Source: Candidatus Omnitrophota bacterium
GTDB lineage: Bacteria; Omnitrophota; Gorgyraeia; B26-G9
DNA length: 64,000 nucleotides
Assembly (NCBI GenBank): GCA_018895275.1
Contig: JAHIOQ010000032.1
Coordinates: 176-64,175, forward strand
Direction of reading: 5' to 3'
The position numbers and the translations under genes are program-made. The notes under the pieces were generated by a model that searched no databases, was not told the origin of the DNA, and saw nothing but the letters and a program-made list of their open reading frames with translations. Shown here piece by piece: positions 4,225-40,638 of this stretch; position 1 is the stretch's first letter; every line of letters begins with the position of its first letter.

Positions 4225-4400
4225 CGACACTTCCATTTATAATTCTTGATATCCCATGTTTTCAACAATAATATCTGCTCTAAATCCCTCGTCAAACTTT
4301 ATGCCTTAATATTAAATTTACACATGTAACTCATGTAGAGAATGTAGAAGAGAAATATTTTGAGCCGGCTAATAAAATTAAAAAACTCCATTCCATAAAA

Positions 4401-4810: not shown

Positions 4811-4826
4811 TGGCACAAAAAATGCT
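4811..4826 (+). promoter_or_regulatory. sigma-54 (-24/-12) type promoter upstream of the sugar transferase gene
   Basis: TGGCAC-AAAAAA-TGCT has exact consensus GG-to-GC spacing (G4812 to G4824 = 12 nt). It lies 66 nt upstream of ATG 4892, and a sigma-54 activator is encoded at 10691. Confidence 0.6.
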
Positions 4827-4891
4827 GATAAATGATACTAATACACTAATACACCTTTATTAGAGTTACAACAATAAAAGGAAGCGTAGGT

Positions 4892-5674: not shown

Positions 5675-5725
5675 AAAGGCATTGGTGCAAAGCTCTGGCG
5701 GATAGAAAAAAAAGTGGTGAGAAAG

Positions 5726-6424
5726 ATGAAAAAATTATTGGTTTTGATAATAATTATGGTATGGGGATTTATTGTCCCGCAATCAAGTTTTGCCGTTATT
5801 ATTATGGCTGATATCGCCAATTCCACGGCGGGGCTTGGCAATTTTGAAGGCACCCTTACCTACAGCGCGGGTAGTGCGACAAACGCGACGCTTGTGATTA
5901 GTTTAAAAAATACCAGTTCTTCAGGTGGTTATCTAACAGCGTTTGTATTGAATAATCCGTTTAATTCCATCTCTGGCATTCCTACCTGGTCGTTTACGAA
6001 TGAGGATTTTAATAAACTTTTTGTCAATGCTGGAATTAAAGGTGAACCTTATGGATATTTTGATATCGGCGCAAGTTTAGGGACAAATCTACACAGTAAT
6101 TTTGCCGATAATGGTCCTCCGACGAAAGGGATAGCTGCGGGTGTTACCGAGACATTCACTTTTAATTTGGCCGGCAGCGGCCTGGACGGATTAACAGAGC
6201 AGAGTTTTATCGACGCGCTTTCCACAGGGGGGAGTTCATATTACGGGCCGCAATTTTTTGTCGCGCGTTTTCGTGGCATACCTGTTGGCGAAGGCAGTGA
6301 TAAAGTTCCGGCAAAAACAAACGGAGAGCCTGTCCCTGAGCCGGCGACGATGTTGTTGCTTGGGCCGGCATTGATGGGATTAGCGGCTACCCGGAAAAAA
6401 ATAGTAAGCAGAGATGATCGGTGA
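5726..6424 (+). CDS. PEP-CTERM sorting-domain protein
   Basis: Signal peptide (MKKLLVLIIIMVWGFIVPQSSFA). C-terminus VPEPATMLLLGPALMGLAATRKK has the PEP motif, a TM segment and a basic tail. The ORF track starts at GTG 5714. Confidence 0.85.
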   Translation: MKKLLVLIIIMVWGFIVPQSSFAVIIMADIANSTAGLGNFEGTLTYSAGSATNATLVISLKNTSSSGGYLTAFVLNNPFNSISGIPTWSFTNEDFNKLFVNAGIKGEPYGYFDIGASLGTNLHSNFADNGPPTKGIAAGVTETFTFNLAGSGLDGLTEQSFIDALSTGGSSYYGPQFFVARFRGIPVGEGSDKVPAKTNGEPVPEPATMLLLGPALMGLAATRKKIVSRDDR

Positions 6425-6589
6425 GTTAGCACGTGTAAAAAAAATAATACAGGAATGACGCGAAGCACTCACTTTTTTAGATAGAACAATGGCCGTGAAT
6501 AAACACAGCGGCCCGGAATAACGTAAGAAGTAGTTAAATATTAAGCAAATGTAATAAATTTTATTAAGAAAAGGGGGTGAATTAGAAAC

Positions 6590-7210
6590 ATGAAAAGATT
6601 AATGTTAGCAGTTCTACTGGTAACAGGTGTAATTATGATGTCTCAACCGGCAATGGCCTTTACCTTTACGCTTAGTCCGGCTCAAATTCAACAGCTTTAT
6701 AAGACTTATGCTACGGGGGGAGCTGGCACAACAGTGTATGAGGTTGAGTCCCTATTTGACGGCGCAAAGTTTATCGGTAAAATCGCTAAAATCGGCGGTG
6801 GTAGTAGCGAGATACCGGAGATTTGGATTGGATCCACTGCGCTGGGGATTAGTGATTTAAGCGGGTTTGACGCGTACGCGTTAAATATCGGTAATTGGAA
6901 TGAAAATACATGGGAATATTGTCTATACTTAAACGCCGGAGGTTCGCCGGTGCAAAGCGGATGGACAGCAATACCGGTTGGCAGTTCTGCGGGTTTAATG
7001 CTGAATCTTACTACAGTATCAGGGTTAAATAATATCTCTGATATAGGTTTTTGTATTCGTGGTAAGGTTCCGCTTGGAACTCCCCGAAACCCTGATTATA
7101 CCTTTGAAACAGTAGTTGCTCCTGTTCCCGAACCGGCAACTATGTTATTGCTCGGGCCGGCATTGTTGGGATTAGCGGGTTTGAAGAGAAAAAAGAGTTC
7201 GTGCGCTTAA
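6590..7210 (+). CDS. PEP-CTERM sorting-domain protein
   Basis: Signal peptide (MKRLMLAVLLVTGVIMMSQPAMA). C-terminus VPEPATMLLLGPALLGLAGLKRKK. A strong RBS (AAGGGGGTG) precedes the start. Confidence 0.88.
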   Translation: MKRLMLAVLLVTGVIMMSQPAMAFTFTLSPAQIQQLYKTYATGGAGTTVYEVESLFDGAKFIGKIAKIGGGSSEIPEIWIGSTALGISDLSGFDAYALNIGNWNENTWEYCLYLNAGGSPVQSGWTAIPVGSSAGLMLNLTTVSGLNNISDIGFCIRGKVPLGTPRNPDYTFETVVAPVPEPATMLLLGPALLGLAGLKRKKSSCA

Positions 7211-7241
7211 TTGAATCAGGCTGTAGATAGAATAAAGAATT

Positions 7242-7291
7242 CGCTCAAGAGAGAAATGCGGTTTTTTTCTCTTGAGCGTTTTTTATTTTTT
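7242..7291 (+). terminator. rho-independent terminator after the second PEP-CTERM gene
   Basis: Stem CGCTCAAGAGAGAAA (7242-7256) / TTTCTCTTGAGCG (7266-7278) followed by TTTTTTATTTTTT. Confidence 0.75.
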
Positions 7292-7332
7292 AGGCAAGGT
7301 GGATTTTTAACGCTAGGTATGTGAAAATTATG

Positions 7333-7408
7333 GAAAATGGAATTGGTACAATTATGACGGATAGCCCTGGTAGAATTTTTAACATGTAGTCCATGTAGAG
7401 CATATAGG
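7333..7408 (+). repeat. right copy of the 75-bp inverted repeat pair
   Basis: See 4401..4475. This copy carries an in-frame stop where the left copy has the 60-aa ORF 4299..4481, which argues that the repeat is non-coding. Confidence 0.85.
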
Positions 7409-7418
7409 CCTTATCGAA

Positions 7419-7457
7419 TGAAATTAATCAGAAGAGTCCAACTCAATTAAGAAAGAA
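7419..7457 (+). repeat. 39-bp conserved intergenic motif, copy 1
   Basis: TGAAATTAATCAGAAGAGTCCAACTCAATTAAGAAAGAA matches 33956-33994 at 37 of 39 positions. Confidence 0.85.
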
Positions 7458-7628
7458 CCAAAATAATTTCGTCAGCGCCGAATTTGACAAAGAGCAGGAA
7501 TTAAGGTATACTACTTACTTAGTTATACTCACTTAGGCTATAAATAGCGTTTATTTTGCTGGACGCATAAACTTTAAACGTGTATAATTTTCAGTAGACT
7601 TAAAAATTATCAAAGCAAGGAGGCTGTC

Positions 7629-8096
7629 ATGATAAAAATTGAGTTCACTGAAAAAGAAAAAGAAATATTAAATTATGAGCGCTATCATCACCCCCATCCG
7701 CGCGTCCAACGAAAAATGGAGGCCTTATGGTTAAAAAGCCAAGGAGAATCGCGTAAACGAATCGCAAAATTAACAGGAGTGTCAGTTAATATTGTTACCC
7801 AATATATTAAAGAATACAAAGCAGGCGGTATCGAAAAATTAAAAGAAATTCATTTTTATAAACCGCAAAGTCAATTAAATGAATACATAATCACAATTGA
7901 AAATTATTTTCAAGAGCATCCTCCTGCAACCGTTAAAGAAGCGATGGCAAAAATTAAGGAACTTACCGGCATTAAACGCAGTGAGGTGCAAATTTGGAAA
8001 TTTATTAAACGCATTGGATTAAAATGTCGAAAAGTAGGCATGATTCCCTCGAAAGTCGATATTGAAAAACAGGAAAACTTTAAAAAAAAGAGTTAG
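7629..8096 (+). CDS. IS630-family transposase, OrfA (HTH DNA-binding part)
   Basis: 155-aa ORF with helix-turn-helix-like segments (RKRIAKLTGVSVNIVTQYIKEY; EVQIWKFIKRIGLKCRKV). It ends just after the slippery A_AAA_AAG at 8084-8090. Confidence 0.8.
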   Translation: MIKIEFTEKEKEILNYERYHHPHPRVQRKMEALWLKSQGESRKRIAKLTGVSVNIVTQYIKEYKAGGIEKLKEIHFYKPQSQLNEYIITIENYFQEHPPATVKEAMAKIKELTGIKRSEVQIWKFIKRIGLKCRKVGMIPSKVDIEKQENFKKKS

Positions 8097-8671
8097 AACC
8101 TCGTCTTAAAGAAGCAAAAAAAGGAACCCGAACCGTTTTTTTTGTTGATGCTGCACATTTTGTTTTAGCGCCTTTTTTAGGATACCTGTGGAGTAGGACG
8201 CGATTATTTCTAAAGGCTCCATCTGGAAGGCAACGGTTTAATGTTTTAGGAGCCCTTAATGCTGTTACGCATGAGTTGATTGCCATCACCAATGACGCTT
8301 ATATCAACTCTCAAAGTGTTTGTGATTTATTATGGAAAATTGCTCATTTAAACTTAAAGACACCTATTACCCTTGTGTTAGATAATGCTCGCTATCAAAG
8401 GTGTAATCTTGTTAAGCAATTTGCAAAGCAGCTTGATATTGAACTTCTGTTTTTGCCAGCATATTCACCGAATCTCAATCTTATTGAACGGCTTTGGAAA
8501 TTTGTCAAAAAGCAATGTTTGTATTCAAAGTATTATTCAGAGTTTGAAAGTTTTAAAAACGCTATCAGCGATTGTCTGGGTAAGACCCATTTAACTTATA
8601 AACGAGAACTTGATTCCCTATTGACTCTCAATTTTCAGATATTTAAGAAAGCACAATTTGTGACCTTTTAA
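8084..8671 (+). CDS. IS630-family transposase, OrfB (DDE catalytic part, reached by a -1 frameshift)
   Basis: The -1 frame is open from 8066. Translation KKELEPRLKEAKKGTRTVFFVDAAHF...LVLDNARYQ...LPAYSPNLNLIERLW shows the D, D, E triad pattern of IS630. The ORF track only shows it from TTG 8276. Confidence 0.75.
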   Translation, partial: KKELEPRLKEAKKGTRTVFFVDAAHFVLAPFLGYLWSRTRLFLKAPSGRQRFNVLGALNAVTHELIAITNDAYINSQSVCDLLWKIAHLNLKTPITLVLDNARYQRCNLVKQFAKQLDIELLFLPAYSPNLNLIERLWKFVKKQCLYSKYYSEFESFKNAISDCLGKTHLTYKRELDSLLTLNFQIFKKAQFVTF

Positions 8672-8779
8672 GGTATACCTTGATTTTTTTTTGAATGCTG
8701 TGTTTAAAAAAATGCACATTCGGCTGTATCTGTAAAGCTAAATATACACTCTTTTTAATAAACGTACCGGAGAATTGAT

Positions 8780-9652
8780 ATGCGGGAAAAAGGCATCACC
8801 CAGACAGGGGTTATAAAAAAGGCACTTGGAACCGGATTTCAGGCTATGGCTGATTTTCCGCAAATAGTGTATCCTTTCGCGATTATTGCGGTTATTGAGG
8901 TTATCGGCTTATTGCTGATCTTCGCGGCACTTCAGCCGCCTTTTGTTAAATACAGTATGCCGATTATTGAGCGCTTCTGGGGAGCGAAGTTTCTGCATTA
9001 TCCGCTGATACTTTTGTTGTTGTCTCATCTGCACTATTATTTCCAGACGGTTGTTGCTGTTTTTTGCGGGGCTTTTGCCTCGGGAATGACAATTAGCGCG
9101 TTTAAGCAGTATAAACAGGAAAAATTTATTACTTTGCGGTCTGCCGCGCGTGATGCCTTGCACAGCTATTGGCACCTCTTGGCGATTAATCTAATTGTGT
9201 TTGCCCTGGTGCAGTGTGCCTTTGTGTTTAAACGGCAGGCAGTATTTAAGATGATACTCGCGATGCGGAATCATTTTGGGGACGAGGGGAATTGGATGCT
9301 TATCCATGCGACAGCAGCGCTATTTATCGGCGCTGTTGTGCAAAGTTTGTTTGTTTTTGCCCAGCCGGCGGTTGTGATTGAAGGGAAAAATTTTATTTCA
9401 GCTATTTTTAAAAGCCTTATCTTAACTTTAAAGAATTTATGGGTGACGTTTGTATTGGTAATTTTTCCTTTGAGCTTATTTTTACCTATTGCTTTGTTAA
9501 AGAACAAGTTATTGTTTTTGATGCAAAGGTTTGTTCCGGAGGTGATTTTTCTCGTTTTGGCGGCGGGGATTTTACTTTCTTTTTTTCTAAACGCGGGGAT
9601 AACAATTATGGTTAGCGCCGGCTACTTTATTATAAAGGATGAGAGAGCATGA
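8780..9652 (+). CDS. polytopic membrane protein, unknown function
   Basis: 290-aa ORF with 6 or more hydrophobic segments and an RBS GGAGAA. It overlaps the next gene by 4 nt (ATGA). Confidence 0.7.
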   Translation: MREKGITQTGVIKKALGTGFQAMADFPQIVYPFAIIAVIEVIGLLLIFAALQPPFVKYSMPIIERFWGAKFLHYPLILLLLSHLHYYFQTVVAVFCGAFASGMTISAFKQYKQEKFITLRSAARDALHSYWHLLAINLIVFALVQCAFVFKRQAVFKMILAMRNHFGDEGNWMLIHATAALFIGAVVQSLFVFAQPAVVIEGKNFISAIFKSLILTLKNLWVTFVLVIFPLSLFLPIALLKNKLLFLMQRFVPEVIFLVLAAGILLSFFLNAGITIMVSAGYFIIKDERA

Positions 9653-11994: not shown

Positions 11995-12023
11995 AAGATT
12001 TAGCCCCTACGGGGCTAAATCTT
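11995..12023. other. 13-bp perfect hairpin enclosing the helicase stop codon between convergent genes
   Basis: AAGATTTAGCCCC (11995-12007), loop TAC, GGGGCTAAATCTT (12011-12023). No adjacent U-tract on either strand, so terminator function is uncertain. Confidence 0.5.
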
Positions 12024-14166
12024 GTGCTTCCACTTGTTTTTTTATGTTGGCGGCAATCTCTTTACCGATAGTCGGAATCTTTTGTAATGATTCTAAAGGC
12101 GCGTTTTTAAGCTGCGCGATGTTTTTATAGCCTTTCCCAAATAGATTGCGGGCGCGCATCCTGCCGATTCCCTTTAGATTTACAAGTTCGATAAGCTCCG
12201 GCTTGATTCCGTATTTCATCTGTGTCCTTAATGTCTGCACTAATTTTATCCCGGGAATCTTGAGCAGTTTGGCTAATTCGATTGCCGCGTAGAGCAGCCA
12301 TTCGGCGGTTTCAACAAAACGGTGCACGTCGCCGGGGCCGATATTAAAAATCTCACAGATATTTTCTTCTTTTTCTTCATTCATCCAGAGGGATAACATC
12401 CATACGGTTTTAATCTTTGCCAGATGGGAATTGAAGTCATCGCTTAAGGGCAGAGGCAGTTCAAAATCTTCGTTATGCGCATCGGCAAAGGGAAGTACTT
12501 TTTCCAAGTCGGCTTTGTTTAAAGCGAGTACGCTCATATCCGGAACGGAACAAATAAGATACAAAAGTTTTAATGACGATATGTGTTCGTTCGTTTCCTG
12601 TAAGCAGTCGCGGATGATTACGGCACTGATGGGGTCAAGATAAAGGCGGCTGATTCTTGCCCCGAATGCCGTAGCCAGCAGCGAGTCATTTTTCTTTTGG
12701 ATCATTTTTTCCCGCGCTAAAAATTCGATGATTTCAATGACCATGTCGGAAATGTCGTAACGCTTCTGCTGATAAGAAAAGAACGTCTTTTGAATGAATT
12801 CGAACGCGCTGTTTATACTGGTGATAAAACCGGTGGCAATGGATGCGAGAAGGTGGGTTCTCAAGGCGGTTTCATTGCCAAGCTGCGAGGCTATCGGTTC
12901 GGCGTCGGCAAAAATGAAATCAGTAAACAAGCTGTTTTGCTCTCTCTGGCTTTTGGAAACAAGGATTGCTTCTCCATACGTATCGTATTTAGGCCGGCCG
13001 GCGCGGCCGCTCATTTGCTTATATTCCATGACGCTGATCGGCCGCATGCCCAGGCCTGAGACATAGCGGTAAAGCCCGCGGATGATTGCCCGCCGGGAAG
13101 GGAGGTTGACTCCTACGGCAAGGGTCGGGGTCGCGCAGATAACTTTTATGGTGTTGCCGCGGAAATTGTCTTCGATCAGTTTGCGGTGCGTATGGTGAAG
13201 CCCGGCATGATGAAATACAACGCCGCTTTGCAGGCATTCACTCAGTTGTTTGCTTAATTTTGTCGTTTCTCCGCTATCATTGTCGACTTTTTCCGAGAGG
13301 GATTTTAGGCGTATGCGTTCATCATTTGATAGTACGCGGTGCATTTGTTTGGCGATGCGCCGGGCTTCTGCTTGCGCGGATTTCCTCGTATTGACAAAGA
13401 CCAAGGCTTGTCCCTGTTCCTTGATGCAATCAATGGCAAGCGCGGCGATATCGTCATCTTCTGCGGTGGAGGTGTCTATTTGCTTTGAAGTGCCGTCGGC
13501 AAATTTTACCGTACCTTGGTAATAGACCCCTTCTTTTAAGGCTACCGGCCGCCATGTGCTGGTAACCAGGTTGGCGTTTAACCAGCCGGCGATGGTGTGC
13601 GCATTGGCGATGGTCGCGCTGAGCCCGAGAATTTTTAATTGGGGATTAATCGTAAGCAGCCGGGTAATCACGGTTTCCAGTGTCGGGCCGCGGTGCGGAT
13701 CTCCGATATAATGTATTTCGTCGACAATAACACAGGCAAGCCGCGAGCACAGCCAGGAGGGGTCCTGGCGTAAAAGCGAATCGACCTTCTCCGCGGTAGC
13801 GATAAGAATGTCGTTTTTTGTGAGGCGCCGGTCTACGTAATCATAATCTCCGGTAGCGATGCCGACGCTAACATTGAGCGAAGTGTAGCGTTCTTTAAAA
13901 TCGTCATGTTTTTCCGAGGCAAGCGCGCGCATGGGGACAATATAAAGGCAGTTGCCTTTTCCCGAGAGTATTGTTTGCAGCATTACAAGTTCGGCCAGCA
14001 ATGTCTTTCCGGCAGCGGTCGGCATGGAAAGGACCATGTTTTTTGGGGATAGCAGCCCTTTTGCAACTGCTTCTGCCTGCGGCGGATACAGATTTTTTAT
14101 CCCGTTTTTGCTGAGTACTTCGCGAAGATTTTCCGGAAGCAGGTCAATATTTGTTTTTTTGTTCAT
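12007..14166 (-). CDS. Hel308/Ski2-like superfamily-2 DNA helicase
   Basis: 719 aa with motif I PTAAGKT, motif II DEIH, SAT, and QMSGRAGR. The C-terminal helix-hairpin-helix LKGIGRMRARNLF gives the archaeal/eukaryotic Hel308 domain order. Confidence 0.8.
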   Translation of the reverse strand: MNKKTNIDLLPENLREVLSKNGIKNLYPPQAEAVAKGLLSPKNMVLSMPTAAGKTLLAELVMLQTILSGKGNCLYIVPMRALASEKHDDFKERYTSLNVSVGIATGDYDYVDRRLTKNDILIATAEKVDSLLRQDPSWLCSRLACVIVDEIHYIGDPHRGPTLETVITRLLTINPQLKILGLSATIANAHTIAGWLNANLVTSTWRPVALKEGVYYQGTVKFADGTSKQIDTSTAEDDDIAALAIDCIKEQGQALVFVNTRKSAQAEARRIAKQMHRVLSNDERIRLKSLSEKVDNDSGETTKLSKQLSECLQSGVVFHHAGLHHTHRKLIEDNFRGNTIKVICATPTLAVGVNLPSRRAIIRGLYRYVSGLGMRPISVMEYKQMSGRAGRPKYDTYGEAILVSKSQREQNSLFTDFIFADAEPIASQLGNETALRTHLLASIATGFITSINSAFEFIQKTFFSYQQKRYDISDMVIEIIEFLAREKMIQKKNDSLLATAFGARISRLYLDPISAVIIRDCLQETNEHISSLKLLYLICSVPDMSVLALNKADLEKVLPFADAHNEDFELPLPLSDDFNSHLAKIKTVWMLSLWMNEEKEENICEIFNIGPGDVHRFVETAEWLLYAAIELAKLLKIPGIKLVQTLRTQMKYGIKPELIELVNLKGIGRMRARNLFGKGYKNIAQLKNAPLESLQKIPTIGKEIAANIKKQVEAQDLAP

Positions 14167-14322
14167 TTTTTTATTATAATATATAAATTTATAATGTGGT
14201 TAAATACCTGGCCTTATAGTTATAACACGTTCGGTTTAAATTCTCAAGACTTTTGCTGTTTATTTTCGTATGTTTATTTTCGTGTTGACTACCCGGATAC
14301 TTTGTAGTATCTTATATGTGCT

Positions 14323-15294
14323 ATGAAAAGTAAGCTGATTACATATACAAAGAGGCCGCGATTAAAAAGCCCGTATCTTATTGCCGCCTGGCCGGGAATG
14401 GGGAATGTGGCGGTGCGGGCCGTAGAGTTCCTCTGGGAAAAGCTGCGGCCGGTGGAATTCGCGGAGATAACCGCGGATGGCTTTTTTTCGCCGCATGAGG
14501 CATGGATCGTAAACAGCCAGGTTGAATTTCCGCGCTTGCCGACGGGAAAATTCTATTATTGGAGAAATCCTTCCGGAAAACATGATTTGATTATATTTTT
14601 ATGCGAGGCACAGCCGGCACAGGAAAAAGGGTATGATTACGCGAAACTTGTTTTGGACATAGCCGTACTGTTTAAAGCAAGACGTATATTTACGTTTGCT
14701 TCGATGCCGTCCCCGATAGATCATTTGCAGGTACCTAAGGTATGGACCACCGCCACGGATAAAAAGATATTAAAGGAGTTATCTAAACTGGAGGTTAGCT
14801 TTTTGCGTACGGGGCAGATAAGCGGCCTTAACGGGCTGTTGCTCAGCGTGGCTAAAGAACGCCGCATAGAAGCTGTGTGTTTTTTGGCGGAGATACCGCT
14901 TTATGCCATACAAATTGAAAATCCCCGGGCGTCGAAAGCCGTGCTGTCCGCTTTTTCCCGGCTGCTGAATCTGGCGCTGGATTTTAGCGGCCTTGACGAA
15001 CAGATCAAGATTATTGAGGATGAGATTGAAAAGCTGATTGATTACTTTAAATCAGGAACGGTCCCGGGCCCGATAAGCGAAGAAGAGGTTGAAAAAATTA
15101 AGCAGACATTGGCCGCGGTTACCAGGTTGCCGGAATCGGCCAGAACAAAAATCGAAGAGTTGTTTAAAAACGCGGAAAAAGATATCTCCAGAGCCAATGA
15201 ATTAAAGCAGGAATTGGATCGATGGCATATTTATAAAGATTATGAGGACAGATTCCTGGATTTGTTCCGGACGCGGAGAAAGGATAATAACTAA
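14323..15294 (+). CDS. PAC2 (proteasome assembly chaperone 2-like) family protein with a coiled-coil tail
   Basis: The N-terminal LIAAWPGMGNVAVRAVEFL pattern and overall alpha/beta layout resemble PAC2/DUF75. The C-terminal 80 aa are charged and helical. Confidence 0.55.
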   Translation: MKSKLITYTKRPRLKSPYLIAAWPGMGNVAVRAVEFLWEKLRPVEFAEITADGFFSPHEAWIVNSQVEFPRLPTGKFYYWRNPSGKHDLIIFLCEAQPAQEKGYDYAKLVLDIAVLFKARRIFTFASMPSPIDHLQVPKVWTTATDKKILKELSKLEVSFLRTGQISGLNGLLLSVAKERRIEAVCFLAEIPLYAIQIENPRASKAVLSAFSRLLNLALDFSGLDEQIKIIEDEIEKLIDYFKSGTVPGPISEEEVEKIKQTLAAVTRLPESARTKIEELFKNAEKDISRANELKQELDRWHIYKDYEDRFLDLFRTRRKDNN

Positions 15295-21263: not shown

Positions 21264-21905
21264 TTAATTTGTCTTTTTGTCGGACTCCCAGTATTTCCGC
21301 GTATCTTCCAGCAGCCTTTTTATTGTTTTTGGATCGAACAGAAGGAAAAAACTGCCTTTGATGCTGTTTTCCTTTATATCGAAAAATGTTTCGATAAGGA
21401 TAATTTCATGCGCCACGTTTTTAAAGCCGTGGAAAGCGACATTGAATATTGTTTCCAGTGTTCCGCAGATAAGACTGGGGGTTGAGTGCAGAATTACCTG
21501 CTTTGTAAACGTGGACAATGTTGCCAGGTAGGCAGAGATAACGATATTGCCGACTTCCTTCAAAGACGATACTCCGTATTCCGTGGCATTGCCGAGTTCG
21601 CTGCGGTATTGAGAAACCGCGTCGACCAGGCTGTAAGCGCTTTTTTCCGGGAACATTAATACGATGTTCCCGGAGAGGTTACCGAGGAGCTGAATGTTTA
21701 CGCCGACTAAAATTTCTTGTGAATGGTTAAGTTTGCTAAATACGGAGTTTGCTTTGATGAGTTTAAGGTCGGGTATTTTTAGCTCTATTCTTTGATTAAG
21801 TACTTGAGAAAGCGCGACGGTGGCATTTCCGGAACAAATATTCCCGACTTCTTTAAGCATGTCGATGCACATAGGATCTAGCGTCGTATTTTTATTTTCT
21901 CCCAT
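21264..21905 (-). CDS. CheC-like protein (CheC/CheX/FliY phosphatase family)
   Basis: Duplicated motif MLKEVGNICSGNATVALS and LKEVGNIVISAYLATLS. Length 213 aa. Confidence 0.75.
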   Translation of the reverse strand: MGENKNTTLDPMCIDMLKEVGNICSGNATVALSQVLNQRIELKIPDLKLIKANSVFSKLNHSQEILVGVNIQLLGNLSGNIVLMFPEKSAYSLVDAVSQYRSELGNATEYGVSSLKEVGNIVISAYLATLSTFTKQVILHSTPSLICGTLETIFNVAFHGFKNVAHEIILIETFFDIKENSIKGSFFLLFDPKTIKRLLEDTRKYWESDKKTN

Positions 21906-22158
21906 GGGATTTTGAACCCTCCTTACTATTTAACTTGTTAGATTTGACCGTTATATGCTTGTCCCTGACCATCTTCACAAAGGCTTCCTTTTTGATTGTA
22001 AACTATAACATAATAAGAAATTAGTGTCAATAAAATTTGTTTTCAAATTAATGTTTTTATGCTAATATAAAATAATATTTTTTTTTTAAGAAAAGCCGTT
22101 CAAAGAGATTTGAGGCAAAATAAGAGCGGCAAATTTATATTGGAAAAGGGCTATAATT

Positions 22159-23475
22159 ATGAACGGATTGAATGCGGCAATGAAAACATTTCCGGGCGGA
22201 AAACATATAGAAGGGCATAAGCAGCTTACCAGGAATGAGCCTATTTGCGCGATGCCGTTACCGGCACAGGTCATTATTCCTTTAAGCCAGCATACGGGGA
22301 GTATCTGTGAACCGCTTGTAAAAAAAGGCGACAAGGTTAAAGCCGGGACAAAAATCGGGCAGGGTAACGGCGTGGTTTCCAGCACGGTTCATGCCAGTGT
22401 TTCCGGTACGGTAAATAATATTAGTGACTATAACCACCCGGTATTGGGCTCTTGTCCTGCCGTAATTATAGATTCCGACGGCAAGGATGAAAACGATGCA
22501 CAGGTGAAGGAGCGCAGCGGGATTGCGGAGCTCTCTAAGGAGGAGTTGCTGGCTATAATTAAAGATAGCGGGATCGTGGGGCTTGGCGGAGCGGCTTTTC
22601 CTACCCAGGTTAAATTAAATCCGCCGCGGCCGGTAGATACCTTAATTATAAACGGGGTTGAATGCGAGCCGTATCTTACGTGCGATTTTCGTCTGATGCT
22701 GGAGAGGACCAACGAACTGCTGCAGGGAATTCAGCTGATTCAGAAGATTGTAAATGTACAAAAAGTATTTATCGGGATAGAAGAAGACAAGCAGGAAGCG
22801 GTTTTGCAGCTTAGAAATAGAATTATGGAAAAGAAGCGCCGGTTTGAAGTTGTTGCTTTAAAAGCAAAATATCCGCAGGGCGCGGAAAAGCAATTGATTA
22901 AGGCGGTTGTCGGACGGGAAGTGCCTCCGGGAAAACTGCCTTTTGATGTCGGCGTTATTGTTGTAAATGTAGGAACGGCGGTAGCTGTTTACGAAGCCGT
23001 ATGTTTAGGAAAGCCTTTATACGAGAGAATCGTTACGGTAACGGGAAGAATTGTAAAGAAGCCGGCTAATTTAAAAGTAAGATTAGGTACGAGGTTTTCG
23101 GATATAATTGCGTTTTGTGAAGGGACAAAAGAGCCCTTGGGAAAAATCATCATGGGCGGGCCGATGATGGGGCTGGCGCAGTTTACGGATGATGTACCGG
23201 TCATAAAGGGAACATCCGGTATATTGATGCTTGCGAAAGATGAAATCAAGGATTTTACGGAAACCCCTTGTATCCGCTGCGGCAGATGCGTGAATGTTTG
23301 TCCGGTTAGGATGCTTCCGTACGCATTAAGCCTCTGCGTGGAATCTAAGAGTTTTGAGCAGGCGCTGCAGTATAATCCGCGGGATTGTATGGAATGCGGG
23401 GCCTGCGCGTATGTTTGTCCGGCAAAACGACGGATCGTCGAAAGTATAAGATTAATTAAGGCGGTTGTGAAATGA
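22159..23475 (+). CDS. rnfC: RnfC-like electron transport complex subunit
   Basis: FPGGKHIEGHK N-terminus, GIVGLGGAAFPT (NADH/FMN site), SGILM, and two ferredoxin motifs CIRCGRCVNVCP and CMECGACAYVCP. Confidence 0.88.
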   Translation: MNGLNAAMKTFPGGKHIEGHKQLTRNEPICAMPLPAQVIIPLSQHTGSICEPLVKKGDKVKAGTKIGQGNGVVSSTVHASVSGTVNNISDYNHPVLGSCPAVIIDSDGKDENDAQVKERSGIAELSKEELLAIIKDSGIVGLGGAAFPTQVKLNPPRPVDTLIINGVECEPYLTCDFRLMLERTNELLQGIQLIQKIVNVQKVFIGIEEDKQEAVLQLRNRIMEKKRRFEVVALKAKYPQGAEKQLIKAVVGREVPPGKLPFDVGVIVVNVGTAVAVYEAVCLGKPLYERIVTVTGRIVKKPANLKVRLGTRFSDIIAFCEGTKEPLGKIIMGGPMMGLAQFTDDVPVIKGTSGILMLAKDEIKDFTETPCIRCGRCVNVCPVRMLPYALSLCVESKSFEQALQYNPRDCMECGACAYVCPAKRRIVESIRLIKAVVK

Positions 23476-24458
23476 GTGAAGAGAGGGCTATGACGTTATC
23501 AATGACGAGTTCTCCGCATATTCGTTTCCCGGAGACGACATCAAGAATAATGTGGACGGTGTTTTTTTGCTTAATTCCGTCCGGGATCGTGAGTGTTTAT
23601 GTTTTTGGGCTTTCCACGCTTTGGATTATTATAACCGCGGTATTGGGCGCAGTGGCTACTGAATACGGATGTGGCTTAATGGCGGGAGGCAAAAATACGA
23701 TTAGTGACGGAAGCGCGGCATTGACGGGGTTATTGCTTGCATATAATTTACCACCGCAGGCGCCTTTATGGATGGTTTTTATCGGTGCGTTCATCGCGAT
23801 TGTTTTTTCCAAGGTTCTTTTCGGCGGTCTGGGATTTAATATCTTTAATCCGGCTTTAATCGGCCGGGTTTTTCTTATGGCAAGCTTTCCTGTATTGATG
23901 ACACGCTGGCCCGCGCCTTTTCGTGTGGATGCGGTTACGGCGGCAACTCCGCTGGCCGTCTTTAAGGACAGCTTCCAGGGGACGAATGTTTTATCTCAAG
24001 CGGATATCATTAATTATTCTTACCGTGATCTGTTTCTTGGGTTTCGCGGCGGTTGTATTGGCGAAGGGTGCGTGGCCGCGCTGCTGCTGGGTGCGGTTTA
24101 TTTACTTATCCGCGGATATATATCATGGCAAATACCGGTCAGTTTTATCGGGACCGTAGCTGTTTTCAGCTGGCTTTTTTCCGGAAAGGATGGTATAGCC
24201 GGCGGAGATTTTATATTGCATATTCTTTCCGGAGGGCTGGTGCTGGGGGCGTTTTATATGGCGACTGATTACGTTACCAGTCCGATAACCAAGACCGGAC
24301 AGCTGATTTTTGGTTTCGGTTGCGGTTTGATCACCGGTGTTATTCGCTTATGGGGAGGATATCCGGAGGGGGTTTCTTATTCTATCTTACTTATGAACAT
24401 CTTAGTCCCGCTGCTGGATAAATTTATTGTGCCAAGGAGGTTTGGTGAATTAAAATGA
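23472..24458 (+). CDS. rnfD: RnfD-like membrane subunit
   Basis: SSPHIR start, polytopic, SGGLVLGAFYMATDYVTSP (covalent-FMN region), and LLMNILVPLLD. Confidence 0.88.
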   Translation: MSEERAMTLSMTSSPHIRFPETTSRIMWTVFFCLIPSGIVSVYVFGLSTLWIIITAVLGAVATEYGCGLMAGGKNTISDGSAALTGLLLAYNLPPQAPLWMVFIGAFIAIVFSKVLFGGLGFNIFNPALIGRVFLMASFPVLMTRWPAPFRVDAVTAATPLAVFKDSFQGTNVLSQADIINYSYRDLFLGFRGGCIGEGCVAALLLGAVYLLIRGYISWQIPVSFIGTVAVFSWLFSGKDGIAGGDFILHILSGGLVLGAFYMATDYVTSPITKTGQLIFGFGCGLITGVIRLWGGYPEGVSYSILLMNILVPLLDKFIVPRRFGELK

Positions 24459-25255
24459 ATAGTATTGCTTCGGCGGTTATCGCCTTATCAGGATTGGGGC
24501 TTATTTTCGGCGCAGTACTGGCGTGGGTTTCAAAAAAATTTCATGTTTTCGTGGATCCCCGGATTACTAAAGTAACGGAATTATTGCCGGGAATCAATTG
24601 CGGCGCGTGCGGATTGGCCGGTTGTGCCGGCCTGGCGGAAGCGGTGGTGAATAAAGAAACCGAGCTGGCGGTCTGTGTTGCCTGTTCGCCTGAAAACAAG
24701 AAAGAAATTGCCGCGGTTCTGGGCGTTTCGGCGGGAGATATGGCCCGGTCAAATACTCTCGCCGCGATAATCGGCTGCGGCGGCGGTACGCGCTGTAAAA
24801 ATAAGTTTGAATACCAGGGGCTTAAAGACTGCCGGGTTGCCGCCCTGACAATCGGTGCTCATAAGGAGTGCCGGTACTCGTGCCTGGAGCAAGGCACATG
24901 TATAGAGGCTTGTCCTTTTGGGGCGATTACGATGCAGCCGGAAGGAGTCCCGAAGGTCATTCTTGAACGTTGTGTCGGCTGCAAAAAATGCGTTTCCGTG
25001 TGTCCGCGGCGGATTATTTATATGGTTGAGCGTAAGAAAAAAGATGTATATATCAATTGTCAGTCCCGCGATAAGGGAGCGCAAGTAATGAAAAAATGCA
25101 AGGTTGGATGTATTGCCTGCGGTAAATGCGTTAAGGCTTGTCCGGTAAATGCGATTGCGATAGAAAACAACCTTGCGCAGATAGATTACAAGAAGTGTAT
25201 TAATTGTAAAAAATGTGTGGCAGTTTGTCCGACAAAGGCAATTGCGCTTCGATGA
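24455..25255 (+). CDS. rnfB: RnfB-like iron-sulfur subunit (N-terminal TM, CxxC FeS domain, multiple 4Fe-4S ferredoxin motifs)
   Basis: TM anchor, LPGINCGACGLAGCAGLAEAV, then CVGCKKCVSVCP, CIACGKCVKACP and CINCKKCVAVCP. Confidence 0.85.
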   Translation: MNSIASAVIALSGLGLIFGAVLAWVSKKFHVFVDPRITKVTELLPGINCGACGLAGCAGLAEAVVNKETELAVCVACSPENKKEIAAVLGVSAGDMARSNTLAAIIGCGGGTRCKNKFEYQGLKDCRVAALTIGAHKECRYSCLEQGTCIEACPFGAITMQPEGVPKVILERCVGCKKCVSVCPRRIIYMVERKKKDVYINCQSRDKGAQVMKKCKVGCIACGKCVKACPVNAIAIENNLAQIDYKKCINCKKCVAVCPTKAIALR

Positions 25256-26565
25256 TGAGTAAAAAAAAGAAAAAAAGCGATTCGCTTGTTAAAAGGATTA
25301 ATTTCCCGTCCGGATGGTCTCTTATCCTCGATAACAATGAGCTGTTAAAAGTAGAAGAAACGAATCAAAAACATGTTTTTGGCCTTGCCGTTGACTTTGG
25401 GACAACATCCGTTTGTGTCAGTTTATGTAATCTGGAGAGCCGGGAAGAACTCGCGGCATCTACGGTGACCAACGCGCAGGCGGAATACGGTCATGACCTT
25501 TGCAGCCGGATTAATTTTGCTTTGCGCGGAAAGGATAACCTGCGTTTATTAAGCGAAAAAGCGGTTTCTTCTTTAAATTGCGGCATCGATGAATGCGCGC
25601 AAAAATCCGGAGTGGACCGGCAAAGGATTTTTACGGTTGTTTTAGTGGGCAATCCTATCCTGCATCAAATTTTGTTTCAACTGCCTCCGGATAGCGGGCC
25701 GGTGTTTAATCACACAGGTGTTTATCAGACGAAAGCAAAGATTTTAGGCCTCAAGGTTAATCCTGATGCAAATGTGCGTTTTCTTCCTGGCGCGGATTCC
25801 GCTGTCGGTTCGGATATCCTGGCCGCGATATTAAGCCTGCGCTTATCCAAATCGAAAAAGATAAATCTTTGTGTGGATATGGGCACGAGCCTGAAGATCG
25901 TGCTGGGGTCCGCATCGAAGTTTGTGATTGCTTCTACGGCCGTGTGTTCGACTTTTGAAGGTTCGCTTATTACCTCCGGCATGACCGCCAAGCCGGGCGC
26001 GATCGAATGGGTGAAGATGGATAAGGGAAAGATAAAGCTGTTGACCATAGGCCATATCCGGCCGCTGGGAATTTGTACAAGCGGAATTATAGATATTATA
26101 AGTGAATTGTTAAGGGAAGGCATTATCGATTCCTCTGGATGCTTGAAGCAAGGTCCATTTTTGATTTATAAAGACAAAAAAATTACTATTGAAATAAATA
26201 AGGATGATGTCAAACGCGTGCAAGCGGGAAAATCGGTAATCTGTAGCGCGATTAAGCTTCTTATGAAAAAAATGGATATAGGGGCGGATTCCGTAAAAAA
26301 GGTATTTATCAGCGGCGCGCTAGGCGGGTATCTTAATCCGGAAAATGCCCGGCGGATCGGTTTAGTTCCGCAGGATTTGCAACAAAAAATCGTTTTTGCC
26401 GGGAATACCGCTTTTGCCGGTGCAAAATTGGCATTGCTTTCCTCTAAGGCGTTTAATGAGATATTAGCGCTTTCAAAGTCTGTGGTTCATGTATCATTGG
26501 CAAAAGACAAGAATTTTGAAAAGGCATGTGCCGAGTTTCTGCCTTTTCCCTCAGAGCCTAAATAA
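25252..26565 (+). CDS. ASKHA-fold DUF4445 protein (C-terminal module of RACo-type reductive activases), no ferredoxin domain
   Basis: FGLAVDFGTTSVCVSL phosphate-1 motif, LVGNPILHQI, and GALGGYLNPENARRIGLVP. The ATG overlaps the rnfB stop (ATGA). Confidence 0.65.
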   Translation: MMSKKKKKSDSLVKRINFPSGWSLILDNNELLKVEETNQKHVFGLAVDFGTTSVCVSLCNLESREELAASTVTNAQAEYGHDLCSRINFALRGKDNLRLLSEKAVSSLNCGIDECAQKSGVDRQRIFTVVLVGNPILHQILFQLPPDSGPVFNHTGVYQTKAKILGLKVNPDANVRFLPGADSAVGSDILAAILSLRLSKSKKINLCVDMGTSLKIVLGSASKFVIASTAVCSTFEGSLITSGMTAKPGAIEWVKMDKGKIKLLTIGHIRPLGICTSGIIDIISELLREGIIDSSGCLKQGPFLIYKDKKITIEINKDDVKRVQAGKSVICSAIKLLMKKMDIGADSVKKVFISGALGGYLNPENARRIGLVPQDLQQKIVFAGNTAFAGAKLALLSSKAFNEILALSKSVVHVSLAKDKNFEKACAEFLPFPSEPK

Positions 26566-35243: not shown

Positions 35244-35543
35244 ATGAGTCTAATTGTAAGAAAATTATTTAGACATGGCGGCAGTTACGCGATAGATTTA
35301 CCAATGGAATTTATTAAGAATGCAGGTACACTTGAGGTTATTTTAGAGAGTACGCCGAATAGATTAAGCATTCGTCCTAAAACAGAATTAGATAGTATTG
35401 AATCAGACCCTCTGTTTGCTGAATTTATTAATGCGTTGACAGTTGATGCAATGAAACATCCGGAAAAACTTCATGAAGCAAAGAAGGTTTGGGATAAAGA
35501 ATGGGATGAGCTTCTTAAGGGGGTTACTGTTGATGAAGAGTAA
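35244..35543 (+). CDS. prlF: PrlF/SohA-like AbrB-fold antitoxin
   Basis: 99 aa. The N-terminal KLFRHGGSYAIDLPMEF looks like a swapped-hairpin motif. It sits upstream of, and overlaps, a YhaV-like ORF. Confidence 0.6.
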   Translation: MSLIVRKLFRHGGSYAIDLPMEFIKNAGTLEVILESTPNRLSIRPKTELDSIESDPLFAEFINALTVDAMKHPEKLHEAKKVWDKEWDELLKGVTVDEE

Positions 35544-35979
35544 CTACCTCTTGAAATACCACGATTTTTACTTCCTGCGTATAGCCAAACTAAAAGAGCA
35601 AGTAAAAGAGCTGCGTAATAAACTTAGTAATGAAGCATTCAGGCAACACGAAATTGTAAAGCTTGCTTATCGCATTCGTGAAGCTGATCAAGAAATTATT
35701 CCCCAGGATCCAAACCGGCCGGAATATCGCCTGACTGGCAATCTTAAAAAATATCGCCGTTATAAACAAGGCCTACAACGCTATAGGCTGTTTTTTTGTT
35801 TTGCAAATCAGCCTAAGATTATTCTATATCTATACCTGAATGATGAAAGGCATTTGCGCAAGGCCGGGGACAGGAATGATCCCTATGAAGAATTTAGTCG
35901 CCTTGTAGATAAGGAATGCTTTTCACACAAGCCTGATGACCCCAAAATCCAGAAGTGGATAAAAAGTTATCGTCCATAA
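35533..35979 (+). CDS. yhaV: YhaV-family type II toxin (ribonuclease)
   Basis: EYRLTGNLKKYRRYKQGLQRYRLFFCFANQPKIILYLYLNDERHLRKAGDRNDPYEEFSRL matches the YhaV pattern as I recall it. The start is taken at the ATG overlapping the antitoxin end. Confidence 0.65.
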   Translation: MKSNYLLKYHDFYFLRIAKLKEQVKELRNKLSNEAFRQHEIVKLAYRIREADQEIIPQDPNRPEYRLTGNLKKYRRYKQGLQRYRLFFCFANQPKIILYLYLNDERHLRKAGDRNDPYEEFSRLVDKECFSHKPDDPKIQKWIKSYRP

Positions 35980-36007: not shown

Positions 36008-37477
36008 ATGAAACCACTGATATTTTTAGTATGTTTAATTTTAATCATAGAGAATATCTCCATAGCTCAACCGCTTGCTCAAAACCACTTAAGAGTAAAG
36101 ATAACCGTTCCTTATCCGTATTCCCTGATCAGAGGTGATGTCCCCATCTATGGAGTTGCCTGCGGCGAAGGTTTTAAAGAATATAAATTGGAATACGGCG
36201 AGGGAGAGAACCCTCAAGCATGGAAGCTTATCGTTAAGTCTGAGAAGCCTCAATTAGAAGAGAACAGCTGGCCTAAAGTGGATTTTTCCCTGGACAAAAC
36301 AATCCCGGGTAATTTGGGGGTTTGGGATACGGGTTTAAGTGAATATGAATATGGAAAACATTTGGTTGACCTGCCAATGGGGACTTATACCTTAAAATTG
36401 ACCGTTAGCAGTCGTTCCGGAGATATAAAAGAGGACCGGGTGGTGGTAGAGGTAGGCCGGGTGGTGTTAAATGCTTTTAGCAGTAAACTGGAAAGTATTG
36501 ATGCTAAAGCAGATTTATTGATCCAGGAACATTCGTTACAAAGCGCTGCGGGGGTTTTTTCCTTAAAGCCTTTGAACATAAAAGCCGAAGGCATTCCCCA
36601 GGGATATAGATTGATTGGGGATGTTTATGAAGTCAATCCTCCGGGAGAGAAATTTACCCGGAAGGCACAATTGGCGATTGTGTATGATAAGTCAAAAGTT
36701 TCTAATGCGGAGAATCTGGGTATTTTTGTTTTTAATCCTGAGATAAATGATTGGCAGTATTTGGAGACTTTTTGTGATGAAAAAACAGACCGATTGGAGG
36801 CGGAGATAGATTCTTTGCCGGAGAAATTTGCGGTTTATGCGGTATTTGAGGCTAAAACGATAAACAATAGGATTAGTCAAAAGGAACAACTAAAGGTTGC
36901 TGAGCCGATCAGTCCTGTTTTAGCTAATGATACCTTTGAAAACGGGTTAGACCAGTGGAAAAATAAACATGGCGCGGCAGGCGCGGTTTTAGAGTTGGAT
37001 AGCAAACAGAATAAAGATAAGGGTTATTGTTTAAAAATAATAGATAGAAATGGAGGAGGGAATTTTGCTTCTCTTATAAGAAGCGAACCTTTTGATGCGC
37101 GGATATACATAATAGTAAAATTTGACTACAGAATCGACAAGGATGTTAAAACCAATTTTTTAGTAAAGGTAAATAATAAATGGTATGACATTGTTTTTAC
37201 CGATGATGAAAAAGTCTACTGGGATATTAATATGGAAAAGATCGGAGAAATTGCCGGGGTAATTGCCGATAATCGATGGCATTGCGCGGAACTTAATCTT
37301 TATGAAATGCTGAGGTCATATACGGATGAGTTTATCGTCCAGGAAATGGTTATGGCCGACTGGGATTCTACCGGGTTTAAGAAACTCGAATTTGGGCATA
37401 ACCCTAAAGGAGCAACGTATTATATCGATAATTTTGAGATAAAATCCGGAGCTAAATCTTATATATGGTGTTTCTGA
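36008..37477 (+). CDS. secreted protein of unknown function (signal peptide; Ig-like and CBM-like regions), probably truncated by a frameshift
   Basis: 489-aa ORF with signal MKPLIFLVCLILIIENISIA. A segment FAVYAVFEA resembles the HFSMYVVAG segment of the 823-aa protein. Confidence 0.7.
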   Translation: MKPLIFLVCLILIIENISIAQPLAQNHLRVKITVPYPYSLIRGDVPIYGVACGEGFKEYKLEYGEGENPQAWKLIVKSEKPQLEENSWPKVDFSLDKTIPGNLGVWDTGLSEYEYGKHLVDLPMGTYTLKLTVSSRSGDIKEDRVVVEVGRVVLNAFSSKLESIDAKADLLIQEHSLQSAAGVFSLKPLNIKAEGIPQGYRLIGDVYEVNPPGEKFTRKAQLAIVYDKSKVSNAENLGIFVFNPEINDWQYLETFCDEKTDRLEAEIDSLPEKFAVYAVFEAKTINNRISQKEQLKVAEPISPVLANDTFENGLDQWKNKHGAAGAVLELDSKQNKDKGYCLKIIDRNGGGNFASLIRSEPFDARIYIIVKFDYRIDKDVKTNFLVKVNNKWYDIVFTDDEKVYWDINMEKIGEIAGVIADNRWHCAELNLYEMLRSYTDEFIVQEMVMADWDSTGFKKLEFGHNPKGATYYIDNFEIKSGAKSYIWCF

Positions 37478-39674: not shown

Positions 39675-40268
39675 ATGGATAAAATAATCTTTTTAGACAG
39701 AGACGGCGTTATAAACAAAGACCTGAACGGGTATGTTACCGCATGGCCGGAGTTTGAGTTTCTCCCGAATGTTTTGGAAGCAATAAAAAGGCTTAGCGAG
39801 CTGGGGTTTAAGGTTGTGGTTGTTTCGAACCAGGCCGGCGTGGCAAAGGGGTATTATACGGCCGAGACGCTGGCGCGGATTACGGCGCAGATGCTTGAAA
39901 CTGTTAGGGCGGCGGGCGGCCGGATTTTTTCCGTGCATTACTGCACGCATCGGGATGAAGATGATTGTATCTGCCGCAAACCAAAGACAGGCCTATTCAA
40001 ACAGGCCCTGGCCGGGATTTCGGTGAATCTTAAGGAAACCTTTTTTGTCGGCGACAATGAGAGAGATATCGAAGCCGGAAAAAAAATGGGATGTAGGACG
40101 ATACTGGTGCTCTCCGGGATTACAAAGACCAAGGCGGATGTGTATAATTTTAAACACAGGCCGGATTTTATCGCGGATGACCTGTGGGACGCGGTGGAAA
40201 GAATAATCGCTAAAGGTAAAGGTTCTAATGATGGAAAAGAAAAAACTGGTTTTAACATTTCCGCATGA
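39675..40268 (+). CDS. gmhB: D-glycero-D-manno-heptose 1,7-bisphosphate phosphatase (HAD-IIIA)
   Basis: FLDRDGVIN, VVSNQAGVAKG, the Zn-site string CTHRDEDDCICRKPKTG, and VGDNERD. Confidence 0.85.
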   Translation: MDKIIFLDRDGVINKDLNGYVTAWPEFEFLPNVLEAIKRLSELGFKVVVVSNQAGVAKGYYTAETLARITAQMLETVRAAGGRIFSVHYCTHRDEDDCICRKPKTGLFKQALAGISVNLKETFFVGDNERDIEAGKKMGCRTILVLSGITKTKADVYNFKHRPDFIADDLWDAVERIIAKGKGSNDGKEKTGFNISA

Positions 40269-40638
40269 TCTTTTGGATAAGCCGATAACCTATCACCTTA
40301 TCAAAGATTATGATTTGATTGTGAATATATTGAAAGCGAAGATTACGCCGAAAGAGGAGGGCGTATTGGTACTGGAAGTTTCCGGGAAAAAAACCAGTGT
40401 TGCTCAGGGTATCGCTTATTTAAAAAATATCGGAATTGCCGTTGAACCGCTGATTAAGGATATCAAATGGGACAAGGACAAGTGTACGCATTGCACGGCC
40501 TGTGTGAGCGTATGTCCGACGGATGCGTTTACCGTTATCCGCGAAACGATGCAGGTTGTTTTTGATCGGGACAAATGTATTGCCTGCGGCTTGTGCGTGA
40601 GCCTTTGCCCGTATCATGCTATGGAGATTATTCTTTGA
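40228..40638 (+). CDS. NIL-domain plus 2x[4Fe-4S] ferredoxin protein
   Basis: N-terminal LVLTFPHDLLDKPITYHLIKDYDLIVNILKAKI (NIL), then CTHCTACVSVCP and CIACGLCVSLCP. Confidence 0.75.
   Translation: MMEKKKLVLTFPHDLLDKPITYHLIKDYDLIVNILKAKITPKEEGVLVLEVSGKKTSVAQGIAYLKNIGIAVEPLIKDIKWDKDKCTHCTACVSVCPTDAFTVIRETMQVVFDRDKCIACGLCVSLCPYHAMEIIL

Follow-up and report, generated by a model that had tools for sequence, protein, structure and literature searches.

The stretch of Candidatus Omnitrophota contig JAHIOQ010000032.1 analyzed here, a window of 64 kb, carries on its + strand a compact operon in which three genes of the Rnf complex, a central energy-conserving enzyme of many anaerobes, are followed directly by a gene for an ASKHA ATPase of the RACE/RACo family. 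The first gene, rnfC (22159-23475), codes for a 438 amino acid (aa) subunit which binds NADH and flavin mononucleotide (FMN) and has two 4Fe-4S motifs, rnfD (23472-24458) for a 328-aa integral membrane flavoprotein subunit, and rnfB (24455-25255) for the 266-aa ferredoxin-side polyferredoxin of Rnf. The ATPase gene (25252-26565) codes for 437 aa without an iron-sulfur (Fe-S) domain. The start codon of each downstream gene overlaps the stop codon of the preceding one in a 4-nt ATGA, so that all three junctions of the cluster are of the same kind; the open reading frame (ORF) map and a check of the junctions bear out this four-gene arrangement, which had been proposed in a first-pass annotation of the sequence. 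GGAAAAGGG is found a few bases 5' of the rnfC ATG and rnfB is preceded by a strong ribosome-binding site, AAGGAGG. An in-frame ATG at 25213, upstream of the ATPase start, is an alternative start which would give a protein of 450 aa.

RnfC, RnfD and RnfB appear to be ordinary Rnf subunits with complete domain sets, and their earlier assignment is supported by both Pfam and NCBIfam, with NCBIfam scores above the cut-offs. RnfC has the RnfC_N, Complex1_51K, SLBB and Fer4 domains, 4Fe-4S cysteines at Cys371/374/377/381 and Cys410/413/416/420, and scores of 544 for TIGR01945 (cut-off 246) and 478 for the RsxC equivalog (cut-off 345). RnfD matches PF03116 (E 1e-116) and TIGR01946 (338, cut-off 207), and aligns to chain D of 7ZC6 with 287 bits. 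RnfB possesses an N-terminal membrane helix, a PF04060 FeS domain and four Fer4 domains, with the cysteines of the FdI-type 4Fe-4S domain at Cys49/52/57/74, and scores 112 for TIGR01944 (cut-off 68.7). Identity to RsxC, RsxD and RsxB of E. coli is 38%, 37% and 31%, respectively. The predicted site of covalent FMN attachment in RnfD is Thr159 (codon 23946-23948) in DAVTAATPL, which aligns with Thr153 of C. tetanomorphum RnfD (7ZC6 chain D; PMC9588780). The conserved threonine that the first-pass annotation had advised to look for is thus present, while the SGG..YMATDYVTSP segment that it took for the flavin region is only a conserved RnfD signature.

The ATPase matches Raco_middle (E 2.7e-34) and RACo_C_ter (E 4.4e-53) in Pfam and aligns to RACo (3ZYY/4C1N) with 188 bits. 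Its sequence agrees at 100% identity with a protein from a Candidatus Omnitrophota metagenome-assembled genome. Its AlphaFold2 model (predicted local distance difference test 93.8) was matched by Foldseek to 3ZYY with a TM-score of 0.89, a root mean square deviation of 2.2 Å and 29% identity, which together with Pfam confirms a RACo-like ASKHA protein without the ferredoxin domain. No Fer2 domain was matched by Pfam in the ATPase, the approximately 42 residues which precede its core contain no Cys, and a Fe-S donor domain of its own is lacking in all 15 members of the clade. The FGLAVDFGTTSV nucleotide-binding motif is present, with the phosphate-1 motif VDFGTTS at residues 47-53 (25390-25410). 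The protein falls below the curated NCBIfam cut-offs for AcsV (NF040756, 230 vs 800) and RamA (TIGR04270, 113 vs 500). About 15 orthologues of 431-447 aa, 40-57% identical and all without Fer2, form a separate group, beyond which the scores fall sharply to ordinary Fer2-containing DUF4445 proteins of about 505 aa. Among 142 columns conserved in at least 90% of 44 ordinary family members the clade keeps 64 (45%), phosphate-1 VDFGTTS and the D-x-G of phosphate-2 being kept in the window protein. In the clade GPAFEG is replaced by SSVFEG-like sequences, GAFGNY by G-x-L-G-D/G-Y (GALGGY in the window) with Phe changed to Leu in 15/15 members, and Leu115 by Cys, again in 15/15. These fixed changes look like a change of function rather than decay. 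The ATPase also diverges faster than the Rnf genes, which are 58-72% identical within their clade, and is a fast-evolving member of the RACE family, whose ATPases reduce low-potential cobalt or other metal cofactors at the expense of ATP; it has lost the 2Fe-2S donor domain of that family. The Co-ligating Ser of RACo (Ser398) was considered as a test and dropped: both the window protein and the consensus of the family have Ala at the corresponding position, so this Ser does not define the family.

To place the operon in its phylum, RnfD was used to scan one genome per species, the best 80 loci (numbered with the prefix L) being mapped by tblastn, and a metagenome scan with the ATPase clade as query added L092 and L094-L098. 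The arrangement recurs in at least 13 Omnitrophota loci: rnfC-D-B with overlaps of 1-4 nt and common neighbors is found in L001, L002, L003/L004, L010-L013, L015, L092 and L094-L098. L001-L004 have the identical rnfC-D-B-ATPase operon, with overlaps of 1-4 nt, in a syntenic neighborhood, and the loci added from metagenomes are all (C-)D-B-ATPase. The closest five RnfD relatives among the matches listed (L010-L013 and L015, 66-71% identity) are all in rnfC-D-B clusters, and the next tier (52-58% identity) consists of complete Omnitrophota operons, mostly in the unusual order C-G-D-E-A-B and some as C-D-G-E-A-B. The D/B junction is precisely conserved across the clade. It follows that a single Omnitrophota lineage has this gene order as a stable trait. 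The first-pass annotation had suggested such a survey, and would have abandoned its interpretation had an adjacent rnfGEA set been met in other assemblies or had the arrangement not been conserved; what was found is the same operon in multiple independent loci and assemblies. All these data come from metagenome-assembled or single-cell genomes, which could raise the suspicion of an assembly or binning artefact or of a decaying rnf remnant. The conservation data in effect rule this explanation out: many independent assemblies and metagenomes have rnfC-D-B in this order and with the same junctions, all ORFs are intact, and the Rnf proteins, at the identity given above, keep their conserved sites across the clade. 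As to the order within complete operons, rnfG precedes rnfD (C-G-D-E-A-B) in L019, L022-L025, L028, L030, L032, L037, L039-L042, L052, L054, L057, L064 and L070, and this is the order of most canonical Omnitrophota rnf operons among the matches listed.

The window-type ATPase subfamily stands directly after rnfB in all 11 loci with flanking sequence. Three of the syntenic rnfCDB loci have no ATPase gene: in L010, which is on a contig of 497 kb, and in L015 synteny is otherwise complete, in L011 a GGDEF gene follows rnfB, and a RACo hidden Markov model detected no ATPase remnant in any of the three. This indicates that the ATPase is an accessory and not a core component. Genes of the same family are found in five of the five other Omnitrophota contexts examined (L035, L104-L107), this time behind a complete rnfCDGEAB operon and a thioredoxin gene. 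In L035, a single-cell genome (8712-15411), rnfB is followed by thioredoxin and then by a ferredoxin-less RACo-like gene of 396 aa, which belongs to a family of Omnitrophota proteins of about 391-407 aa with about 90 clusters at 90% identity and which keeps 92/142 of the family-conserved columns. L104 (4804-11194), L105 (4886-11197) and L106 (1960-8869) have rnfC-D-G-E-A-B, thioredoxin, a RACo-like gene (about 397 aa) and a PurN-like gene, and in L107 (Ca. Omnitrophica CG1_02_49_10; 1625-9006), which shares this layout, the RACo-family protein has 519 aa and retains Fer2. The overlap of the thioredoxin stop with the ATPase start is 8 nt in L035, L104 and L107. Since RACo-family genes also follow complete rnfCDGEAB operons, the pairing says nothing on a loss of rnfG, rnfE and rnfA. 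In a neighbor-joining distance tree with 200 bootstraps the window-type clade and the thioredoxin-linked clade were each recovered in 200/200 replicates, while the two were joined in only 1/200. Whether its origin is common or convergent, a RACE-family gene is repeatedly placed after rnfB in Omnitrophota, and this is the firmest new point of the present analysis.

Family members from other phyla, both Fer2-containing and other Fer2-less ones, adjoin corrinoid-related genes, among them those for B12-binding proteins, MtaA-like URO-D proteins, pterin-binding methyltransferases and a B12-radical-SAM gene. As an ordinary corrinoid activase, the window ATPase could serve an enzyme whose gene lies elsewhere, e.g. 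a methionine synthase in split form or a different B12 enzyme, with a position that is simply inherited and has no physical or electron-transfer connection with Rnf. Ferredoxin-less members beside B12 proteins imply that loss of Fer2 needs no RnfB, within each lineage synteny extends over the entire neighborhood, and the gene was lost in some loci in which rnfCDB was retained. We nevertheless consider this unlikely: adjacency to rnf is shared by two RACo clades which the distance tree does not place together, it spans operons with and without rnfG/E/A, thioredoxin and Fer2, and the ATPase start overlaps the stop of either rnfB or the thioredoxin gene.

The Rnf genes of the window lack several of their usual companions. 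Among the window ORFs, chosen as a greedy set of non-overlapping frames with a minimum length of 80 aa, there was no Pfam match to PF02508 (RnfA/E) or PF04205 (RnfG, FMN_bind), and tblastn with RsxA, RsxE and RsxG of E. coli gave no match in the window, in agreement with the first-pass annotation, which had found no RnfG, RnfE or RnfA homolog there. The remaining subunits are as constrained as those of complete complexes. Of the universal columns, defined as at least 90% conserved across canonical sequences, the rnfCDB clade keeps 88/94 in RnfC, 83/84 in RnfD and 43/46 in RnfB, i.e. 93-99%. The FMN-attachment Thr is kept in 9/9 RnfD proteins of the clade, flavinylation here being predicted from sequence. 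The sole change in a universal RnfD column is Ala to Pro at residue 158, which precedes the flavinylated Thr, in 7/9 clade members: Pro is found in L001-L003, L010-L012 and L015, while Ala is kept in the window (codon 23943-23945) and L013. In 42 canonical sequences this residue is Ala in at least 90%, Ser in one and Pro in none. For columns conserved within Omnitrophota, the RnfD clade keeps 108/124, compared with 111/124 between two canonical groups, and has 9 fixed-different sites, compared with 1 for the canonical group. In RnfB, the membrane helix and the FdI domain show the same degree of conservation in the clade as in canonical groups; in A. woodii the former binds to the helix of RnfG and the latter is inserted between RnfA and RnfE (PMC11889175). 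Beyond a few fixed changes in the FMN loop, we detected in RnfD and RnfB no relaxed selection that would be a sign of lost partners. These patterns argue that RnfC, RnfD and RnfB still work in a Rnf-like electron path, and they lean, without proof, towards the Rnf partners being present.

Rnf clusters are known to be split in this phylum. In L043 rnfA lies at a distance of 3.5 kb, the clusters of L053, L071 and L077 likewise show interruptions, and in Kaelpia rnfB is located on a separate contig. According to Table S5 of Williams et al. 2021, nearly all metagenome-assembled genomes from Ace Lake have six rnf genes and none is rnfCDB-only, and the KEGG tables of Seymour et al. 2023 have K03612-K03617 in at least one genome among the rows listed. 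Because of the full constraint on RnfC, RnfD and RnfB and the split rnf clusters of the phylum, we slightly prefer, at about an even chance, that rnfG, rnfE and rnfA are encoded elsewhere in the genome, in which case RnfC/D/B would be part of a normal ion-coupled ferredoxin:NAD+ oxidoreductase.

For the operon as a whole the explanation which we favor, tentatively and as slightly less than an even chance, is that it would be a lineage-specific derivative of the Omnitrophota rnfCDGEAB-thioredoxin-RACE ATPase operon with an ATPase fed by RnfB. The rnfG-E-A block and the thioredoxin gene would have left the operon in this lineage, with rnfC-rnfD-rnfB-ATPase remaining. The RnfB polyferredoxin, or a ferredoxin kept reduced by Rnf, would give an electron to the ATPase, which in turn would hand it to a low-potential cofactor of its partner, probably a corrinoid enzyme encoded elsewhere, and the ATPase would be an accessory dispensable for the Rnf proteins. 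A functional link of RnfB to a ferredoxin-less ATPase is plausible, and the ATPase is probably fed by RnfB; the FdI fold of RnfB resembles the 4Fe-4S domain of CoFeSP, the natural partner of RACo (PMC9588780).

A stricter version of such a link had been put forward in the first-pass annotation, which saw a possible distinct module, a machine dedicated to reductive activation rather than an ion pump, in which electrons pass from NADH via RnfC and RnfB to an ATP-dependent activase anchored at RnfD. In its favor are the translational coupling of rnfB with the ATPase gene, the invariable place of the ATPase subfamily beside rnfB (11/11 loci) and the loss of its own Fe-S domain. The cluster is indeed real and recurring and the connection between RnfB and the ATPase plausible, but a module that depends on the ATPase is contradicted by L010, L011 and L015, in which synteny is kept and the gene is missing. 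RACo-family genes are found also after complete rnf operons, and divergence is much faster in the ATPase than in the Rnf genes (40-57% vs 58-72% identity). The role of RnfD as an anchor for the activase fares no better: with 83/84 universal columns and the periplasmic FMN-attachment Thr kept, which would be superfluous for an anchor, RnfD cannot be regarded as passive. We therefore hold the dedicated machine to be improbable.

Several observations weigh against the derivative-operon explanation and the rnfG/E/A genes being elsewhere that accompanies it. That electrons pass directly from RnfB to the ATPase is deduced solely from the order of the genes, and no corrinoid protein was found near any of the Rnf-linked RACo-like genes examined; in the window (Pfam) and the related loci there were no B12-binding, URO-D or Pterin_bind genes. 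The phosphate-2 motif GTNGE is changed to G-x-x-x-K, with Glu replaced by Lys (E215K) in 15/15 clade members (GTSLK in the window, within VDMGTSLK at 25873-25896), and one member of the clade, P0015, has lost the phosphate-1 Asp. These altered motifs make ATP hydrolysis itself uncertain. As regards the Rnf partners, tblastn with Omnitrophota RnfA, RnfE and RnfG gave no match at E <= 0.1 in the window and 15 related loci, so that these genes are unseen in the 64-kb window and across 16 loci with 280 kb in total, and five reference assemblies with rnfCDB had no second rnfD among the 80 best matches. Finally, the RnfD clade shows W139F, A158P and E166D together with a 9-aa insertion in the periplasmic FMN loop, changes which would fit an altered periplasmic partner. 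On the grounds of this empty sequence, the missing second rnfD and the FMN-loop changes, a true absence of rnfG, rnfE and rnfA from these genomes is a real possibility, although somewhat below an even chance.

If these genes were absent, the window would code for a true three-subunit Rnf, a smaller membrane complex unable to pump by the RnfA/E route, which could act as a one-way conduit between NADH/ferredoxin and the outer-face FMN of RnfD or as a cytoplasmic RnfC-RnfB shuttle. Apart from the three grounds just given, with the Ala to Pro change beside the flavinylated Thr among the loop changes, the precise conservation of the D/B junction across a clade whose Rnf proteins are 63-72% identical speaks for such a complex, RnfB is known to contact RnfC (PMC9588780), and partial Rnf/Nqr systems were proposed as one-way paths (PMC8238504). 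On the other hand, the absence data cover 280 kb of loci and not whole genomes, split rnf clusters occur in the phylum, RnfD, the RnfB membrane helix and the FdI domain are without relaxation, and neither the window nor the flanks of related loci contained a gene for FMN_bind, ApbE or another periplasmic redox partner. We regard the three-subunit complex as possible, and as the less probable outcome. An additional step, in which genomes without RnfA/E/G would have a three-subunit RnfC-D-B whose ion gradient is replaced by RnfB-coupled hydrolysis by the ATPase for low-potential acceptors, appears unlikely. If true, an enzyme that has until now been known solely as an ion-coupled machine would have a variant coupled to ATP. 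The best match of a profile made from 15 Omnitrophota RnfA sequences was P0122, a PF02508 protein of 338 aa; RnfA has about 200 aa, and P0122 may be a RnfE-RnfA fusion or a mis-called gene.

Irrespective of a loss of rnfG/E/A, RACE-type ATPases recurring at the ends of rnf operons across Omnitrophota, with and without the 2Fe-2S domain, point to an undescribed partnership of the ferredoxin-side subunit of Rnf with an ATP-driven electron activator, and RnfB would be a concrete candidate electron source for family ATPases that lack a Fe-S donor domain. Should the genomes truly lack rnfG/E/A, the conserved operon would be a natural experiment on what RnfC, RnfD and RnfB do alone. Our literature search found no paper on rnfCDB-only operons, rnf-linked DUF4445 genes or rnf-thioredoxin-RACo operons. 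The undescribed part is the link between Rnf and the ATPase, whereas a "minimal Rnf" is not proven.

The genes which flank the operon are unrelated housekeeping genes, with HcyBio and a CheC/CheX-like gene upstream and FloA/NfeD, LeuRS and ComEC downstream. The CheC/CheX-like gene (21264-21905, - strand; ORF map and Pfam) is divergent from rnfC and shares with it an intergenic region (21906-22158, + strand), presumably the promoter region of the operon, in which a scan for the consensus gave no strong sigma-70 site on the + strand. HcyBio (PF01837; 19859-21058), a gene of sulfide-dependent homocysteine synthesis, lies just upstream of rnfC, as it does in every rnfCDB locus with a readable flank (L001-L004, L010, L012, L013, L015, L094-L096), and also in L011 (3110-5138), whose other flanks differ. 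A Thi4-family gene is mostly beside HcyBio; it is not present in L003/L004, and upstream in the window none could be recognized. Genes for the usual NIL-ferredoxin partner of HcyBio (40228-40638) and for aspartate-semialdehyde dehydrogenase (44303-45379) likewise lie in the window, and an electron-supply link with RnfB is conceivable. Elsewhere in the window, the region 3181-7210 contains an exosortase (EpsH), a sugar transferase and two PEP-CTERM proteins, which constitute a PEP-CTERM/exosortase sorting system, and at 7629-8671 two adjacent ORFs with a HTH_23 domain and the C-terminal part of a DDE_3 transposase resemble a split or frameshifted IS630-type element. In the region 12007-15294 a Hel308-like helicase with archaeal-type domain 4, on the - strand, is adjoined by a PAC2 (proteasome assembly chaperone family) gene, which directly precedes oligopeptide ABC transporter genes; L010 has kept this PAC2-opp arrangement as well. 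At 35473-35979 there is a gene for an endonuclease toxin of the YhaV type, beside an ORF of 489 aa (36008-37477) that had no Pfam match.

Compared with the Rnf complexes of C. tetanomorphum (7ZC6) and A. woodii (9ERI), the window RnfC, RnfD and RnfB share the domains, the cluster cysteines, the FMN-binding Thr and the RnfB helix with its FdI domain, but the operon has no rnfG/E/A in the readable sequence and has an additional ASKHA gene joined to it. In the known mechanism it is on RnfG, RnfE and RnfA that the membrane 2Fe-2S cluster, the path for Na+ and the FMN relay of the periplasmic side depend, the cluster and the Na+ path being held by RnfA/E while RnfD only transfers electrons (PMC11889175), although recent structures disagree on whether RnfA/E or RnfD is the ion carrier (PMC11889175 vs earlier proposals). 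As a concept, what comes nearest to a partial Rnf among published systems are those of NQR/RNF-like type (Meheust et al. 2021, PMC8238504; Huang et al. 2024 preprint, PMC10979944), in which only one of two transmembrane electron paths is kept, leading from a NAD(P)H-side module through a RnfD-like subunit. There, a RnfD-like domain without the flavinylated Thr is fused to a NqrF-type NAD-binding domain (PF00175) and accompanied by a RnfG-like partner and a nearby ApbE (PMC8238504, PMC10979944). The window RnfD, in contrast, is a stand-alone PF03116 protein of 328 aa which keeps the Thr and is paired with RnfC and RnfB, and there is no FMN_bind or ApbE gene near the cluster, so the defining features of NQR/RNF-like systems are missing from it.

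RACE ATPases have a flexibly linked 2Fe-2S donor domain and spend ATP on the reduction of Co(II) to Co(I) (PMC7317905). With RACo (3ZYY, 4C1N) and its relatives (RACE/DUF4445/COG3894, including AcsV and RamA) the window ATPase shares the middle and ASKHA fold and the D-x-G-T-T motif; it differs in having neither the 2Fe-2S nor the RamA-type 4Fe-4S donor domain, in the fixed changes of its phosphate-2 and adenosine motifs, and in being encoded after rnfB instead of beside a corrinoid protein or methyltransferase. The Omnitrophota rnfCDGEAB-thioredoxin-RACo-like operons (L035, L104-L107) likewise have a RACE gene at the 3' end, mostly without Fer2, but they keep rnfG/E/A and the thioredoxin gene, and the L035 ATPase has canonical GTNGE and GPAFE motifs and is without the N-terminal beta-hairpin present in the window ATPase. 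From these comparisons we can conclude that the Rnf part of the operon is a gene-content variant of a well-known complex, joined to an ATPase that is a divergent member of the RACE fold.

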